This document shows, one piece after another, positions 17,879 through 64,000 of a DNA stretch of 64,000 nt; positions within the stretch are counted from its first letter, which is position 1, and each line of letters begins with the position of its first letter. Position numbers and translations under genes: made by a program. The DNA comes from an uncultured archaeon (GTDB taxonomy: Archaea > Iainarchaeota > Iainarchaeia > Iainarchaeales > Iainarchaeaceae), in contig CAZNZM010000002.1 of the NCBI GenBank assembly GCA_964577555.1, positions 11,741 to 75,740 on the forward strand. The letters run 5' to 3'. Under the pieces are notes generated by a model. It was given only the letters and a program-made list of their open reading frames with translations. It had not been told where the DNA came from and made no database searches.

Positions 17879-17949
17879 AGCTGGGAGAGGGAGTCGAACC
17901 CCCCTAGCCCGCTCTGCAGGCGGGTACATAGCCGCTCTGACATCCCAGC
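17879..17949 (-). tRNA. tRNA-Cys (anticodon GCA), with no encoded CCA.
   Basis: On the minus strand it reads GCTGGGA...CCCGC-CTGCAGA-GCGGG...GGGGG-TTCGACT-CCCTC-TCCCAGC-T. There is a perfect 7-bp acceptor stem, a T-loop and an anticodon stem-loop. D-arm pairing is weak. Confidence 0.6.
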
Positions 17950-48396: not shown

Positions 48397-48472
48397 TGGT
48401 GGGCCCGGCAGGAATTGAACCTGCTACCTCCACCGTGTCAAGGTGACGTCATAACCGATAGACCACGGGCCC
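48397..48472 (-). tRNA. tRNA-Val (anticodon GAC) with genomically encoded CCA.
   Basis: The minus strand reads GGGCCCG-TG-GTCT..GAC-G-TCACC-TTGACAC-GGTGG-AGGTA-GCAGG-TTCAATT-CCTGC-CGGGCCC-A-CCA. Confidence 0.85.
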
Positions 48473-59056: not shown

Positions 59057-60262
59057 TTGCTGATTTGTATGAAAGGTTTTGACAGTATTAAGTCTGCATT
59101 GAAAGATCTTAAAAATGGAAAAATGGTGGTTGTGGTTGATGGTGATGATCGGGAAAATGAAGGGGATATTTTGCTTGCTGCCGAAAAGGCGACTCCAGAA
59201 AAATTGAATTTTATAATAAAAGAAGCAAGAGGCCTTTTATGTGTTCCAATAACACAGAAAAAAGCAGATCAATTGGGCCTTCCGAAAATGACTTGGCAGA
59301 ATGACAAATTTAATACTCCTTTTACTGTTTCTGTTGATGCGGCTTCTTGCGGTACAGGTATAAGCGTGCAAGACAGGCTTCTCACTATTAAAAAAATTCT
59401 TTCCGAAAAGTCCAAACCAGAGTCATTGCGCCGACCCGGGCATTTGTTTCCTTTGGTTGCTCAGGATGCAGGAGTTCTTGCGAGGCCGGGCCACACGGAA
59501 GCCGCGGTTGATTTGCTTTTGCTTGCAAATCTGAAACCAGTCGGAGTAATTTCAGAAATTATGAACGATGACGGTTCAATGGCAAGGTTGCCAGAATTAA
59601 AGAAATTTGCTAAATTGCATAATTTGAAATTGATTTCAATAAGGGATTTAATCGATTACAAGATTTCTGCAGGAAAAAACATTTTAGAATGTGGTCATGC
59701 CAAGCTTCCAACAAAATTTGGAAATTTTGAAGCAATAGGTTTTCGCGATTCCCTTGCAAACGAAATTTATTTAGTAGTAAAAAAAGGAGATTTGAAAAAA
59801 GGCAAATCGCCTTTGGTAAGAATTCATTCTGCATGCATAACTGGAGATGTTTTTCACAGCCTTAGGTGTGACTGCAATGATCAATTGCATGCAGCGTTAA
59901 AAAAAATTGAAAGAAATGGAAATGGTTTGGTTATTTATGTGCCTCATCATGAAGGCAGAGGGGCTGGGCTTTTGAACAAGCTTAAAGCTTATGAATTGCA
60001 AGAAAAAGGCAGGGACACTGTTGATGCAAATTTGGAGCTTGGCTTGGAAATTGATAGCAGGGATTTTGGTCCAAGCGCACAAATTTTGCTTCATTTAGGA
60101 ATTAAGAAAATCAGATTAATGAGCAACAACCCTGTAAAAAAATTGAATCTTGAAGCTTATGGTATAAAGATCACAGAAGTGGTGCCTTTAAAGGTAAAAC
60201 CTAACAAATATAATAAATTTTATCTTGAAACCAAAAAATTAAAATTAGGACATTTTTTATAA
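59057..60262 (+). CDS. ribBA: Bifunctional 3,4-dihydroxy-2-butanone-4-phosphate synthase / GTP cyclohydrolase II (bacterial-type RibBA).
   Basis: The RibB half has VVVDGDDRENEGDIL and ARPGHTEA. The RibA half has RIHSACITGDVFHSLRCDCNDQL and EGRGAGLLNK. Confidence 0.85.
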   Translation: MLICMKGFDSIKSALKDLKNGKMVVVVDGDDRENEGDILLAAEKATPEKLNFIIKEARGLLCVPITQKKADQLGLPKMTWQNDKFNTPFTVSVDAASCGTGISVQDRLLTIKKILSEKSKPESLRRPGHLFPLVAQDAGVLARPGHTEAAVDLLLLANLKPVGVISEIMNDDGSMARLPELKKFAKLHNLKLISIRDLIDYKISAGKNILECGHAKLPTKFGNFEAIGFRDSLANEIYLVVKKGDLKKGKSPLVRIHSACITGDVFHSLRCDCNDQLHAALKKIERNGNGLVIYVPHHEGRGAGLLNKLKAYELQEKGRDTVDANLELGLEIDSRDFGPSAQILLHLGIKKIRLMSNNPVKKLNLEAYGIKITEVVPLKVKPNKYNKFYLETKKLKLGHFL

Positions 60263-60325
60263 AATTTGTTTTTTGAAATTATTCATTAAACATTTGTTTA
60301 AATTAATTTATCAAGGTGTTTTAAA

Positions 60326-61234
60326 TTGTCTGAAAAATTCTCTGCTATATTTGGGCTTATAGTTTCGTCTTTTATTTTTGCAATTGTAGGGATTTCTTAC
60401 AAATTGTTTATTTCAATAGGAATTGCATTTATTTCTTTTTTTTGGATAACTCGGTTGTTAAAATTGCTTACTGTTTACGGGATTATGAAAGCAAGAGGAA
60501 TAAATATTGAAATAATCAGTGATAGGCGAGAATTATTTTTTCTTTATTTAAACGGTTTTTTTAGCGTAATAAGTCCTATTTTTTTTGCTCTTGCATTGAT
60601 TTATACAAAAGTATCAACAGCATATTTCCTTTCATACACAATGCCTGCCTGGACTTTGATTTTTTCAGTTGCATTTCTTGGTGAAAAAATTTCTTTAAAA
60701 AAATTATTCGGAATAATGCTTACTGTTATTGGAATTTTTTTGATTACACAACCTGGCGACTTATCTTTAGTAAATTTAGGTTTTATTTTTGGGGTTCTTA
60801 CAGCTTTTTCTCATGCCGGGGATATTATAACCTCGCGAGAACTTAAAGATTATAAACCTGAATTAGTTTCGTTTTACTCTAACTTTTTTCAATTTGTCAT
60901 ATTTACTCTGGCTTTTTTTGCAATGTCAAAAGAAATTATTTTTTGGGAGCCTATAATTATTTTTTATTTAATAATTATTGGCATACTTTTGGGAGTTGCC
61001 AGTTCTTTTTATTATTACTCTCTGCATTATATTGAAGCCTCGAAAGCAGCAATAATATCACTTACAGAACTCATATTTGCTTTATTTTTAGGCATGTTGC
61101 TTTTACAAGAGACTCATTCCATTTTTGAATGGTTTGGTTATTTGTTTATAATACTTGCAGCAGGGATATTTATTTTGAGAAAATCATCTATTCAAAATTT
61201 TACACGATTGATAAATTTCAAAAGAAAATACTAG
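60326..61234 (+). CDS. EamA/DMT-superfamily transporter.
   Basis: It has about 10 TM helices in two halves, each ending in a G-rich helix (LTVIGIFLI / ILAAGIFIL). Confidence 0.5.
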   Translation: MSEKFSAIFGLIVSSFIFAIVGISYKLFISIGIAFISFFWITRLLKLLTVYGIMKARGINIEIISDRRELFFLYLNGFFSVISPIFFALALIYTKVSTAYFLSYTMPAWTLIFSVAFLGEKISLKKLFGIMLTVIGIFLITQPGDLSLVNLGFIFGVLTAFSHAGDIITSRELKDYKPELVSFYSNFFQFVIFTLAFFAMSKEIIFWEPIIIFYLIIIGILLGVASSFYYYSLHYIEASKAAIISLTELIFALFLGMLLLQETHSIFEWFGYLFIILAAGIFILRKSSIQNFTRLINFKRKY

Positions 61235-61459
61235 AGTCTTTTGCAAGTTGTTTTAGTTTAAAGTAATAATTTATGAAGAAATAAATAGAATGGTGCTCTC
61301 ATATATAATCCGATGCTTTATGACTTCTATTAGCAAGCTTGGTTAAATTATTACACAAGAATTTTGATCAGCGTTCGCAAACACGACAATTATAGAAATT
61401 TTGGCATGCCAAACATTAAATAATTGTTTTTTATTATTTTGTGTTTTAATTTTAATTAA

Positions 61460-61798
61460 ATGGCAAAAAAATCTGGGTATCCAGAATTGTCTGAGTTAGA
61501 ATTGCGCATACTTGAAATAGTTAGGGAGCGTTGGCCGTCGTCTGCTTTGGAAATAGCTGAGAATTTAGGTGAAGATGTTTCCTCACATGAAAAACGAAAG
61601 CAACAATCAACCAAATATATTTATTATTTGAAAAAACTCGTTGAGAAAAGGCTGATTCTGTCAAAAAGAGCCGGCAATTTGTTATTGGTTTGGCCAATTG
61701 AAGCCGAAGCCTATAGGGCAATTCACCGCATAATTTCAGAAGCTGAAAAAAACGCAGTTGCATGTATTGAAAAAAAGGCAGGTTATAAAAATGCTTAA
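61460..61798 (+). CDS. Winged-helix transcriptional regulator.
   Basis: It has LSELELRILEIVRERWPSSALEIAENLG (an HTH recognition helix). Length is 112 aa. Confidence 0.5.
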   Translation: MAKKSGYPELSELELRILEIVRERWPSSALEIAENLGEDVSSHEKRKQQSTKYIYYLKKLVEKRLILSKRAGNLLLVWPIEAEAYRAIHRIISEAEKNAVACIEKKAGYKNA

Positions 61799-62360
61799 CT
61801 CGTTTTTGGATAAATACATATTTACAAATTCTTTTAGCTACAAACACAACAACTTTTATTTAGTAAACATTCCGCTTGTTATAATTCCGGTTACTACTTT
61901 GGTTGCAATAGCTGAACAAAACAACAAAGACCTTAATATTGAAGTTTATTATTCAATAAAAGAGTCAATAATTTCTTTAATAAAAGAAAACATAATATTT
62001 GAATTTGGCACTAGCAATGAAAAAATTGTCGAATTCATGAATAATTTTTTTTCAGCTTGTGGTTGGGGGAAAATAGATATTATTGACCTTGATAAATTAA
62101 ATACGCGTGCAATACTTTCAGTTACAAATTCTCCTGTAGCAAAATTGTGTAAAATATCAAAAAATCCTTGTGACACTTTTCTGAGAGGCTTTTTTGCAGC
62201 AATATTTTCAACATATTTCAAAAAAGATATTGATTGTGTGGAAATAAAATGTGCCTGTCTTGGTTCGCAATCATGCGAGTTTATTATAAAACCTATTCAA
62301 GAATTCAATTTTGAAAATAATCTGACAAGAAATCAATTATTGTCTAAAAAAGATTTTTGA
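61791..62360 (+). CDS. V4R (4-vinyl-reductase-like) domain protein.
   Basis: ATG 61791 overlaps the upstream stop. The C-terminal VEIKCACLGSQSCEFII fits the E-x2-C-x3-G-x3-C-x-F V4R signature. Confidence 0.45.
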   Translation: MLNSFLDKYIFTNSFSYKHNNFYLVNIPLVIIPVTTLVAIAEQNNKDLNIEVYYSIKESIISLIKENIIFEFGTSNEKIVEFMNNFFSACGWGKIDIIDLDKLNTRAILSVTNSPVAKLCKISKNPCDTFLRGFFAAIFSTYFKKDIDCVEIKCACLGSQSCEFIIKPIQEFNFENNLTRNQLLSKKDF

Positions 62361-62458
62361 AATGTTTTATCATGTTAATTAAATTCAAAAGATTCAGTCA
62401 ATTACACAAAAAACTAGCAATTTTAATAACACCAGAACCTTTTAAATATGCCAAATAC

Positions 62459-63208
62459 ATGATATTTTTAATGATTGAAAGATGTCCTACAGGTATAGAA
62501 GGTTTGGATAAGGCATTAAACGGCGGAATACCAAGAAACAATATTGTCCTAATTTCAGGCGGAGCAGGAACCGGAAAAAGCACCCTTTGCCTTCAATTCT
62601 TAATTAACGGAGTAAAAATATTCAACGAAAAAAGCCTTTATATCTCAACAGAACAAAGCAAAAAAGAAATATTCAAAACAGCAGAGAGCTTTGGCTGGGA
62701 TTTGGCTTCACTCGAAGCCACTAACAAACTAAAAGTAGTTTACTTCGACATTGTCGAAACCGACGGCTTCTTAGAAAAAATGTATGAACTTTACACTTCT
62801 TTTATGCCAAAAAGAGTTGTCATAGACTCGTTAACAACACTAGCAGATTCTTTACTAATTTCCAATAAAGAAACAGACAAATCCTATTCGCTAGTTAAAA
62901 TAGCAGATAGTGTCTCACCAATACCAAAAACAGAAAGGCTAGTTCAAAAAAGCCTGCTTTATCACTTGATGAAAAAACTCCGCCTCTTTGACTCAACAAT
63001 CCTTCTAACTTCAGAATTACTTGAAGGACAAAACGGCCTCAGCGCCGACCAAATAAGCGAATTCGTATGTGATGGAGTGATGGTTTTAAAATATTTAGCA
63101 ATAGGCGAAACATTGAGTAGGACTATTGAAATAAAAAAAATGAGATACACTACTATTGAAGGCGGAATAAAATCTTATGAATTTAGTGATAATGGAATAA
63201 TACTTTGA
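62459..63208 (+). CDS. KaiC-like / RecA-superfamily single-domain ATPase.
   Basis: It has PTGIEGLDKALNGGIP...LISGGAGTGKSTL (Walker A) and a Walker B region VVIDSLT. The start is uncertain. The track ORF starts at TTG 62357. ATGs lie at 62459 and 62471. Confidence 0.65.
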   Translation: MIFLMIERCPTGIEGLDKALNGGIPRNNIVLISGGAGTGKSTLCLQFLINGVKIFNEKSLYISTEQSKKEIFKTAESFGWDLASLEATNKLKVVYFDIVETDGFLEKMYELYTSFMPKRVVIDSLTTLADSLLISNKETDKSYSLVKIADSVSPIPKTERLVQKSLLYHLMKKLRLFDSTILLTSELLEGQNGLSADQISEFVCDGVMVLKYLAIGETLSRTIEIKKMRYTTIEGGIKSYEFSDNGIIL

Positions 63209-63230
63209 TTTTTATGCGAGGTTAATTTTT

Positions 63231-64000
63231 ATGGATATTAAAGATAATTTTGTTAGACTTTATGTAAAGAGATTTGTAATTCCAAGAGCTTTGATTTTAG
63301 ATGTTCCTGGTTTTGTTAATTTTAAAATTTCTGGAAAAACTTCAATTTTTGCAAGACAACTTTTAGTTCCTGAATCATTTTTTATTAATTTAGAAAAAGT
63401 TATTGTCGAAAAATTCGGTGAAAAAGGAAAATCGATTTTTTATTCTGTTGGAAAAAAATTCGGTTATAGTTTTGCACAATTAGGAAGATTTGAAAATATC
63501 TCAGATCATCCTGGCGATGCTGTTAAGGATTGGATTGTTATAGCTAGTAAATTTGTTGAAGGAACTTATGCTTCTGAAATAAGCCAAGTTATTGATGTGA
63601 AAAATAAAACAGTAGATTATACTCTAAAAAATTTTGTAATTTGTAGAAAGTTAGGTTACGATTTTTTTTTAGCTACTGGCGGTGCAGCAGGTGTCATTGC
63701 ATGGTTATTTCAAGATAAAAACATAGAAGGGTATTATTATGATAATAAATTTTTGGAAGATGGCAACATTTGTAAAGTAAAATGTGCGCCATATAAAATA
63801 TTAAAAAATTCATTTTCTGACAACGTATTTTCTGAAACTAATTTAGATGATCTTACTCATGATCCAATGAATTACTTGAAGTTTAACGAAGAAAAGCCAC
63901 TAAGATATAATAAATCTTTTAGTAATTATCTAGATGCAAAAATATTTTCTTATGAAAATGGTATTGTGAGTTATAATTATAATAAAGAAAGATTTTTTTT
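63231..64000 (+). CDS. Hypothetical protein, possibly a second V4R-like domain protein. The 3' end runs off the window.
   Basis: An open frame runs from ATG 63231 to the window end, at least 256 aa. The Cys and Gly pattern FVICRKLGYDFFLATGGAAGV...CKVKCAPY resembles the upstream V4R protein. Confidence 0.35.
   Translation, partial: MDIKDNFVRLYVKRFVIPRALILDVPGFVNFKISGKTSIFARQLLVPESFFINLEKVIVEKFGEKGKSIFYSVGKKFGYSFAQLGRFENISDHPGDAVKDWIVIASKFVEGTYASEISQVIDVKNKTVDYTLKNFVICRKLGYDFFLATGGAAGVIAWLFQDKNIEGYYYDNKFLEDGNICKVKCAPYKILKNSFSDNVFSETNLDDLTHDPMNYLKFNEEKPLRYNKSFSNYLDAKIFSYENGIVSYNYNKERFF

Follow-up and report, generated by a model that had tools for sequence, protein, structure and literature searches.

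The 64,000-nucleotide stretch of contig CAZNZM010000002.1 analyzed here (hereafter, the window), derived from an uncultured archaeon of the Iainarchaeota (assembly GCA_964577555.1), ends in four co-directional open reading frames (ORFs) on the + strand at positions 61460–64000, a region with a G+C content of ~28–36%. They encode a winged helix–turn–helix (wHTH) protein (ORF1), a stand-alone V4R protein (ORF2), a single-domain KaiC-like ATPase (ORF3), and a tandem V4R-like protein (ORF4) that runs off the window end. The nearest relatives of these proteins were found in genome bins of the DPANN lineages Micrarchaeota and Iainarchaeota (Diapherotrites). The same four genes had been recorded in an initial annotation of the window, which interpreted them as one overlapping, tightly coupled, ligand-sensing operon with a dedicated HTH; all four were confirmed as + strand ORFs. 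From the layout described below we infer two transcription units, ORF1–ORF2 and KaiC–ORF4–PcrB–HAD. The four-gene adjacency in the window is a local arrangement of these units, which may be functionally linked within the Iainarchaeota.

The locus could be followed beyond the window, an extension that the initial annotation had anticipated, on a 43-kb Joint Genome Institute metagenome contig (L001) located through an exact match to the ORF1 protein. L001 was 100% identical to the region across all 2541 nt and completed ORF4 to 382 aa, the remainder of the gene lying at L001:12541–12920, past the window end. It also revealed two further genes (L001:12926–14445): a PcrB/GGGPS-family gene after a gap of 5 nt, followed with a 4-nt overlap by a gene for a HAD-IB phosphatase. 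The PcrB-like protein matched PF01884 at 38.6 bits (cut-off, 23.9) and fell below the cut-offs of all NCBIfam GGGPS/HepGPS models (best score, 115 vs. 247). The PcrB–HAD pair recurred in ~15 related loci.

ORF3 (62471–63208, + strand; 245 aa) encodes a KaiC-like ATPase of the RecA superfamily, as initially annotated. It matched the KaiC family PF06745 at 174 bits (E = 3.8e-51) and contained Walker A (GGAGTGKS) and Walker B (VVIDS) motifs, together with a catalytic Glu in ISTEQS, which aligned with TFEES of the KaiC CI domain with one Glu kept. These motifs were conserved in an alignment of 55 sequences comprising ORF3 and 54 KaiCs neighboring ORF4 homologues, and ORF3 is predicted to be an active KaiC-type ATPase. 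Its single domain, Walker A/B motifs, and catalytic Glu are shared with archaeal single-domain KaiC-like ATPases (PH0186, PH0284, SSO2452, and ArlH/FlaH), and it could be aligned with KaiC CI, PH0186, PH0284, and SSO2452. A circadian KaiC, in contrast, has two domains; this assignment was ruled out for ORF3 by its single domain and low equivalog scores, since it scored below all NCBIfam KaiC/ArlH equivalog cut-offs (PRK09302, 124 bits vs. 408; TIGR02655, 102 bits vs. 546), and neither kaiA nor kaiB was seen in ~20 kb of L001 around ORF3. An anti-phage defence reading was likewise rejected: PADLOC models gave the KaiC-like protein weak P-loop matches (E = 1e-5 or weaker), and ORF1, ORF2, and ORF4 had zero matches to these models.

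The start of ORF3 at the V4R stop, given in the initial annotation, held only for a mechanical TTG start at 62357, to which it probably refers. Other in-frame starts lie at 62372, used by the gene caller on L001 with an 11-nt gap, and at 62459, and the resulting proteins range from 245 to 278 aa. A start at ATG 62471 or 62459 was favored both by the N-terminal sequences of seven close homologues (MxxxR.KTGIxGLD) and by the presence of a TATA-like box (TTTAAATA; 62441–62448, + strand). ATG 62471 lies ~26 nt downstream of the box and leaves a spacer of ~100 nt after ORF2, so that the overlapping operon of the initial annotation was retained for ORF1 and ORF2 and lost for the KaiC gene. Archaeal TATA-like boxes were picked by eye and then compared across homologous loci; in L014, L016, L018, L019, L034, and L081, such boxes preceded the KaiC start by 25–38 nt, and the box at 62441–62448 probably serves the KaiC unit as its promoter. 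A scan for bacterial sigma70 promoters and terminators was disregarded as uninformative for an archaeon.

ORF4 (63231–64000, + strand, for the first 256 codons) starts at an ATG preceded by a Shine–Dalgarno-like GAGGT motif. No Pfam or NCBIfam family was assigned to ORF4, whether as the 256-aa portion or at its complete length of 382 aa; the full-length protein matched only DUF2507 at E = 0.018, and the V4R model PF02830 weakly matched 5 of 53 ORF4 relatives (best E = 3.4e-4). The AlphaFold2 model of ORF4 (pLDDT, 89.8; pTM, 0.91) showed a β-β, H-H-H, β-β, H, β-β pattern twice, at residues ~29–194 and ~239–381. Foldseek searches of this model against the Protein Data Bank (PDB) retrieved the phenol-sensor domains of MopR, PoxR, and DmpR (E = 3e-4; target-normalized TM-score, 0.57–0.60), as well as YslB/DUF2507, TPC6/Bet3, and H-NOX, at probabilities of 0.85–1.0; BcsD was also among the matches. 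In local hhalign comparisons, the C-terminal half of ORF4 matched the V4R family of ORF2 with 96% probability (E = 4.8e-9), and the N-terminal half matched it at E = 2.4e-4 over the Cys-motif segment. A hidden Markov model of the ORF4 family also picked up ORF2 in the window at E = 2e-5, and the family profile weakly matched MopR residues 12–81 (E = 0.008). The two halves were not significantly similar to each other (hhalign E = 0.089); the internal duplication is deduced from the repeated secondary-structure pattern and from the separate similarity of each half to V4R, and not from half-to-half similarity. ORF4 thus belongs to the V4R/Bet3/H-NOX fold superfamily, a group described previously (PMC2253512, PMC10933270), and lies outside Pfam V4R as now defined. 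The initial call of ORF4 as a V4R-like, Cys-patterned frame of at least 256 codons was accordingly upheld by fold and profile–profile comparison, although not by Pfam.

The Cys pattern has a counterpart in this superfamily. Thor-TRAPPC3 and PoxR possess a four-Cys Zn site (PMC2253512, PMC10933270), and most ORF4 homologues carry an equivalent cluster (C138, C172-equivalent, C181, and C185), usually formed by C138 and a C-x-G-x-G-D-x2-C-x3-C motif. Among 70 family members, Cys was present at position 138 in 55, at position 172 in 43, at position 181 in 55, and at position 185 in 45; some members had none of the four, and the C-terminal unit carries no Cys cluster. ORF4 itself keeps three of the four, with Asn at position 172, which explains the remark on Cys patterning in the initial annotation; judged from the alignment, the pattern represents a partly decayed four-Cys cluster. 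The family comprised 103 clusters at 90% identity and 358 representatives at 50% identity. The best 150 of these 358 representatives were stand-alone proteins of ~350–391 aa or shorter fragments, and none was a larger protein with additional domains. Residues 1–35 were conserved and modeled with low confidence.

To characterize the genomic context of ORF4, we surveyed 76 loci with ORF4 homologues obtained by a genome-collection scan. They originated from Micrarchaeota, Iainarchaeota, Altiarchaeota, Aenigmatarchaeota, Nanohaloarchaeota, Thermoplasmatota, and a few other bins. A KaiC gene lay directly upstream of, and co-directional with, the ORF4 homologue in 50–52 of the 76 loci; in five others it was directly downstream and convergent, and in 12 more it was within 3 kb. 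The gap between the KaiC stop and the start of the ORF4 homologue had a median of 10.5 nt and was ≤30 nt in 36 of 50 cases. PcrB, a UbiA prenyltransferase, a geranylgeranyl reductase (GGR), or a divergent UbiA was encoded at most three genes away from the ORF4 homologue in 64 of the 76 loci, and the cis-prenyltransferase family PF01255 added three, giving 67 loci with an isoprenoid-lipid gene at that distance. Eight of the other nine loci stop right after the ORF4 homologue, and the ninth has UbiA four genes off. The gene directly downstream encoded PcrB in 18 loci, UbiA in 21, and GGR in 8, with co-directional gaps of −26 to +46 nt, mostly ≤12 nt.

Across the 76 loci, the neighboring families comprised UbiA (38), GGR-family (23), PcrB/GGGPS (20), HAD phosphatase (15), and cis-prenyltransferase (3) genes. 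Other frequent neighbors were a methyltransferase gene and, paired with it, a gene for a multipass membrane protein (cluster c8); hhalign placed the membrane protein in the UbiA superfamily with 95.8% probability. Representative proteins matched UbiA PF01040 (E = 1e-18), PcrB PF01884, and GGR TIGR02032 (185 bits; cut-off, 158.8). In Aenigmatarchaeota loci the order was KaiC, UbiA, and tandem V4R, with overlapping or abutting ends. Two database-annotated loci independently confirmed the pattern: in L082, UbiA overlaps the ORF4 homologue, with a convergent KaiC gene and a polyprenyl synthase gene 1.3 kb away, and in L083 (Ca. Burarchaeum), the ORF4 homologue comes after three tandem KaiC genes and is itself followed by genes for a methyltransferase and for two proteins without a Pfam family. 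In L021, L045, L054, and L063, which have no adjacent KaiC gene, the tandem V4R gene was still beside lipid genes. The association held at 30–35% identity among ORF4 homologues, in DPANN phyla and in Thermoplasmatota. Because the association withstands differences in gene order, strand, and enzyme type down to this level of divergence, inherited synteny alone is unlikely to account for it. The surveyed neighborhoods share a recurrent set of KaiC, tandem V4R, and prenyl-lipid genes; the widely conserved unit is KaiC with the tandem V4R protein, which is constantly accompanied by enzymes of isoprenoid-lipid metabolism and not by a transcription factor.

Several features of individual loci were recorded in the same survey. 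KaiC-like genes were present in two tandem copies in L006, L010, L028, L035, and L049; the three copies of L083 (L083:3736–5996) precede the tandem V4R gene, and two FIST-domain genes lie nearby. A cluster of proteins of 277–317 aa (c5), whose N-terminus is wHTH-like by eye and which has no Pfam family, occurred near the module in 11 loci, including L001 (L001:14447–15400, − strand), and may represent another regulator. In L082, a T2SSE/PilB-type ATPase with an intein (Intein_splicing and LAGLIDADG; L082:814–3951, − strand) is encoded ~2 kb upstream of the ORF4 homologue. L031 and L061 also carry the module and come from bins labeled ‘Spirochaetes bacterium’ and ‘bacterium’; these contigs may be mis-binned, because their gene content (three UbiA genes, GGR, and KaiC) resembles that of archaeal loci. 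Downstream of window-type KaiC genes, L080 encodes a soluble protein of 120 aa that is Roadblock-like by eye and has no Pfam match (L080:9895–10257), and L079 encodes a protein of 218 aa that is membrane-spanning by eye (L079:15793–16449).

The first unit in the window begins with ORF1 (61460–61798, + strand; 112 aa), a wHTH protein with a long C-terminal helix whose family was narrow, with 27 clusters of 95–138 aa. All Pfam wHTH matches of ORF1 were below the cut-offs (Penicillinase_R, 17.1 bits vs. 22.6, E = 0.007; HTH_27, 14.7 vs. 22.2; HTH_24), and its profile retrieved only MarR/ZitR from the PDB sequences, without significance (E = 0.12). Since sequence searches were non-significant, a fold search was needed. 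The AlphaFold2 model, built with 27 family members (pLDDT, 83), had the topology H-H-H-β-β-H, in which a three-helix bundle (residues 12–24, 29–35, and 43–62) is followed by a β-hairpin wing (66–71 and 74–79). The top 50 Foldseek matches were almost all wHTH DNA-binding proteins of the ArsR/CzrA/SmtB, MecI/BlaI, MarR, and PadR types (best E = 1.8e-3; probability, 1.0). On the basis of this model, ORF1 folds as a winged helix, in agreement with its original description.

Upstream of ORF1, a perfect 14-bp palindrome (TTTGGCATGCCAAA; 61400–61413), found once in the window, constitutes a candidate operator. Its core (TGGCATGCCA) occupied the same position ahead of the orthologous wHTH genes of three further genomes, making four in all, with the versions CTGGCATGCCAG in L009, CAGGCATGCCAG in L081, and CTGTCATGCCAG in L079. 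A TATA-like box (TTTTTTATTA; 61427–61436, + strand) lies ~26 nt upstream of the ORF1 ATG, which suggests a leaderless or short-leader transcript, and its position relative to the palindrome agreed with that in L009, L079, and L081, where the two elements are 12–17 nt apart. The conserved placement indicates that the palindrome is likely the binding site of ORF1, pointing to autoregulation.

ORF2 (61791–62360, + strand; 189 aa) encodes a V4R protein that stands alone and bears a Cys cluster. As noted at the outset, its ATG overlaps the stop codon of ORF1; the overlap spans 8 nt, and the two genes are translationally coupled. Residues 109–168 matched PF02830 at 46.7 bits (cut-off, 31; E = 3.4e-12). 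Pfam thus supported V4R in ORF2 and fold and profile comparisons supported it in ORF4, and the ATPase encoded between them has both Walker B and the catalytic Glu, so that neither ground for refutation named in the initial annotation applies; the profile searches envisaged in the initial annotation accordingly matched PF02830 for ORF2 and PF06745 for ORF3, but not PF02830 for ORF4. The ORF2 family was narrow (16 clusters, every one with a precomputed PF02830 match), and its named members were Diapherotrites or unclassified ‘archaeon’ bins.

The wHTH–V4R pairing was also found in L009, L079, and L081. The order in L081 was RibBA–EamA–wHTH–V4R–[insertion sequence (IS)]–KaiC–V4R, with a KaiC 71% identical to ORF3, and the last gene encodes a single V4R protein of 175 aa, a paralogue of ORF2, rather than the tandem protein. 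The IS element, an rve-type transposase gene (L081:8685–9500, − strand), splits the V4R gene from the KaiC gene in a locus that is otherwise syntenic with the window. In L080, the wHTH gene was replaced by one for a different small protein, ribbon-helix-helix-like by eye. In L007, L009, L010, and L079, the wHTH–V4R pair was located 4–7 kb away from KaiC, with 4–6 kb of unrelated genes between. An ORF2-type V4R gene lay within 7 kb of a window-type KaiC gene in all seven Iainarchaeota-type genomes seen. Over the 77 clustered loci (L001 and the 76 loci with ORF4 homologues), however, an ORF2-type single V4R was present in only six, and a wHTH homologue was detectable in 2 of the 76 (L007 and L009). 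The wHTH–V4R pair is restricted to the Iainarchaeota lineage and only loosely linked to the KaiC and ORF4 genes. The proposal of one four-gene cassette, tightly coupled and served by an HTH of its own, was not borne out, as relatives showed a narrow wHTH–V4R pair and a separate unit of KaiC and tandem V4R; taken together, the initial annotation was partly confirmed in its observations and partly supported in its interpretation.

The 5′ side of the region encodes RibBA, an EamA transporter, and archaeal housekeeping proteins (exosome, proteasome, and Rpp14), which marks the host as an archaeon. The first two occupy window positions 59057–61234, the fused RibBA (DHBP synthase and GTP cyclohydrolase II) having a mechanical TTG start and preceding the EamA-family transporter; the RibBA–EamA–wHTH–V4R order is shared with L081. 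No further KaiC, V4R, UbiA, GGR, or PcrB genes turned up when the remainder of the window was searched. An Rfam scan of the window returned two tRNA genes only (17879–17949 and 48400–48472, both on the − strand), far from the region.

Comparison with known systems suggested precedents for both units. MsvR recognizes a conserved motif in front of its own gene, and the cysteines of its V4R domain modulate DNA binding (PMC3729527). ORF1 and ORF2 resemble this regulator in combining a winged helix with a Cys-bearing V4R and in the conserved inverted repeat that accompanies their promoter. The NCBIfam MsvR model (NF053755) matched ORF2 only in its V4R part (positions 150–236; E = 1e-8; 35 bits vs. 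a cut-off of 220). Moreover, MsvR is a fused protein of methanogens, whereas ORF1 and ORF2 are separate overlapping genes in a DPANN archaeon and ORF1 has no detectable similarity to the MsvR HTH.

For the second unit, the best structural matches of the ORF4 model were regulators with an XylR_N–V4R sensor (XylR, DmpR, MopR, and PoxR). This class couples a V4R-type sensor of hydrophobic ligands to an oligomeric ATPase, a likeness to the present module that is conceptual and functional only. XylR/DmpR regulators carry the sensor on the same chain as a sigma54 AAA+ activator and a DNA-binding domain, whereas ORF4 comprises two tandem units on a separate polypeptide, without a DNA-binding domain, beside an ATPase of the RecA/KaiC class, and the sequence identity was 13–17%. 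ORF4 also shares its fold with Bet3/TRAPPC3–TPC6 and archaeal V4R/TRAPPC3-like proteins. Bet3/TRAPPC3-type proteins have an α/β fold with an internal hydrophobic cavity, and their working form is a two-unit dimer (PMC2253512, PMC10933270). More generally, the V4R/Bet3 fold binds hydrophobic ligands, such as phenols in PoxR and MopR and palmitate in TRAPPC3 (PMC10933270, PMC2253512). ORF4 differs from Bet3/TRAPPC3 in that its units are fused in one chain, it has no link to vesicle tethering, and its partners are KaiC and prenyl enzymes. Archaeal KaiC-like ATPases have been proposed as signaling hubs (Makarova et al., 2017, as cited in PMC5847659), and ORF3 is likewise encoded beside a putative input protein. 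The KaiC/tandem V4R/prenyl-enzyme module can be read as such a hub with a V4R-type input, and its novelty is provisional.

Based on these data, we propose that KaiC and the tandem V4R protein form a feedback sensor or regulator of isoprenoid ether-lipid synthesis, situated beside a self-regulating wHTH–V4R unit, a reading that we favor with a confidence just short of even. The function was assigned from gene context and fold only. ORF1 and ORF2 would constitute a split version of V4R regulators such as MsvR: a wHTH dimer would bind the conserved palindrome next to its own TATA box, and the Cys-bearing ORF2 would modulate DNA binding when it senses a small hydrophobic ligand or a change in redox state. 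The second unit would express KaiC, the tandem V4R protein, PcrB, and HAD from its own promoter. The 382-aa ORF4 would form an internal pseudo-dimer of two V4R/Bet3-type ligand-binding units and bind a polyprenyl chain, carried either by a prenyl-diphosphate donor [e.g. geranylgeranyl diphosphate (GGPP)] or by a prenyl-glyceryl-phosphate product. A polyprenyl chain was proposed because it is the only feature common to the substrates of GGGPS-like, UbiA, cis-prenyltransferase, and GGR enzymes. Through physical contact, for which the N-terminal 35 residues are a candidate docking segment, the tandem V4R protein would relay its occupancy to a hexameric KaiC-like ATPase, and the ATPase state of KaiC would tune the neighboring prenyl-transfer enzymes. 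In a wording that does not commit to sensing, KaiC and the tandem V4R protein may be a hitherto unrecognized, dedicated accessory component of archaeal ether-lipid biosynthesis that binds polyprenyls and controls or feeds GGGPS-, UbiA-type, and GGR enzymes, an assignment that we regard as tentative and somewhat less probable than not.

A number of observations weigh against this proposal. The PcrB and UbiA neighbors fell below all NCBIfam GGGPS/DGGGPS equivalog cut-offs, and their substrates need not be membrane-lipid precursors. The KaiC partners of ORF4 homologues were diverse (~30–40% identity, at least two subtypes), and their pairwise identity tracked that of the ORF4 homologues moderately (r = 0.60); because of this diversity and moderate co-variation in pairwise identities, orthology of the partner KaiCs was not established. 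Window-type KaiC genes also had other downstream partners, namely a single V4R gene (L081) or genes for unrelated small proteins (L079 and L080). Finally, the promoters and the operator were read from sequence alone, every ORF4-family member came from an uncultured genome bin, the genes of the surveyed loci were called by a simple in-house ORF script and grouped into families by BLAST clustering, and the Pfam/NCBIfam checks of neighbor families were performed on representatives only.

The main rival is a carrier or chaperone function, in which the tandem V4R protein is a soluble carrier of isoprenoid lipids between a GGGPS-like enzyme, the membrane-embedded UbiA, and GGR, and a KaiC-like hexamer powers loading, unloading, or membrane extraction; in DPANN cells, the cargo might include lipids scavenged from the host. 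The neighborhood evidence for such a carrier is identical to that for the feedback sensor, and the variation of the partner enzymes (PcrB, UbiA, cis-prenyltransferase, and GGR) suggests that the common factor is an isoprenoid chain and not any single enzyme. The uniform length of the ORF4 family and the absence of fusions to signaling domains, observed in the best 150 of the 358 representatives, fit a carrier as well, as does the acyl chain that sits in the Bet3/TRAPPC3 cavity (PMC10933270). No transporter gene, however, was conserved in the surveyed neighborhoods. A further lead comes from bacteriochlorophyll synthesis, for which BchJ, the founding V4R protein, was suggested to act in substrate channeling; this pathway also employs the UbiA-type BchG and the GGR BchP. 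We take the presence of a V4R protein, a UbiA-family prenyltransferase, and a GGR in one pathway to parallel the same three families that neighbor each other here, as a lead only; the BchJ system differs in that its substrate is a tetrapyrrole, its hosts are bacterial phototrophs, and KaiC is not involved. Characterized archaeal KaiC-like proteins, such as ArlH, are regulators or scaffolds, and we know of no KaiC-like protein that extracts lipids, which counts against a carrier. On balance, we consider this function unlikely, while retaining it as the principal competitor of the feedback sensor.

The model of the initial annotation, in which both V4R proteins feed KaiC and the wHTH protein provides the transcriptional output of a single ligand-sensing cassette, accounts for the adjacency and common direction of the four genes in the window, for the RibBA–EamA flanks and gene order retained in L081, and for the proximity of ORF2-type V4R and window-type KaiC genes in the seven Iainarchaeota-type genomes. 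The fourth gene of L081 is nevertheless a single V4R and not the tandem protein, the unrelated genes in L007, L009, L010, and L079 part the wHTH–V4R pair from KaiC, KaiC starts ~100 nt after ORF2 and has its own TATA-like box, and the palindrome occurs upstream of ORF1 only. Together with the scarcity of ORF2-type V4R (6 of 77 loci) and wHTH genes (2 of 76), in contrast to near-universal lipid genes, these features render a single cassette improbable. More improbable still is a general small-molecule or redox signaling pair, whose lipid genes would be neighbors through inherited synteny. KaiC-like ATPases are multi-purpose in archaea, window-type KaiC pairs with differing downstream genes across genomes, and many surveyed loci came from related lineages, all of which would suit such a generic hub. 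The lipid-gene association nonetheless outlasted changes in order, strand, and enzyme type at 30–35% ORF4 identity, and the tandem V4R gene stayed beside lipid genes in the four loci without an adjacent KaiC gene.

To our knowledge, little has been established about how archaeal ether-lipid synthesis is regulated or organized. Among the literature searched, there was no paper with both KaiC and geranylgeranylglyceryl, and nothing relevant on KaiC with V4R, KaiC with prenyltransferase, or V4R with archaeal prenyl-lipid enzymes. If KaiC and the tandem V4R protein do form an accessory component of ether-lipid biosynthesis, they would represent the first candidate for a regulator or chaperone of archaeal membrane-lipid synthesis, distributed mainly in DPANN archaea and some Thermoplasmatota, and the conserved pair of an ATPase and a ligand binder in GGGPS-like/UbiA/GGR operons provides a testable candidate for that regulatory layer. 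ORF4 defines an uncharacterized family without a Pfam or NCBIfam model, whose fold connects eukaryotic TRAPP subunits with H-NOX and the hydrocarbon sensors of bacteria. This family is concentrated in DPANN archaea, whose autonomy in lipid synthesis is debated, and the module could be relevant to membrane synthesis or remodeling in these cells with small genomes.

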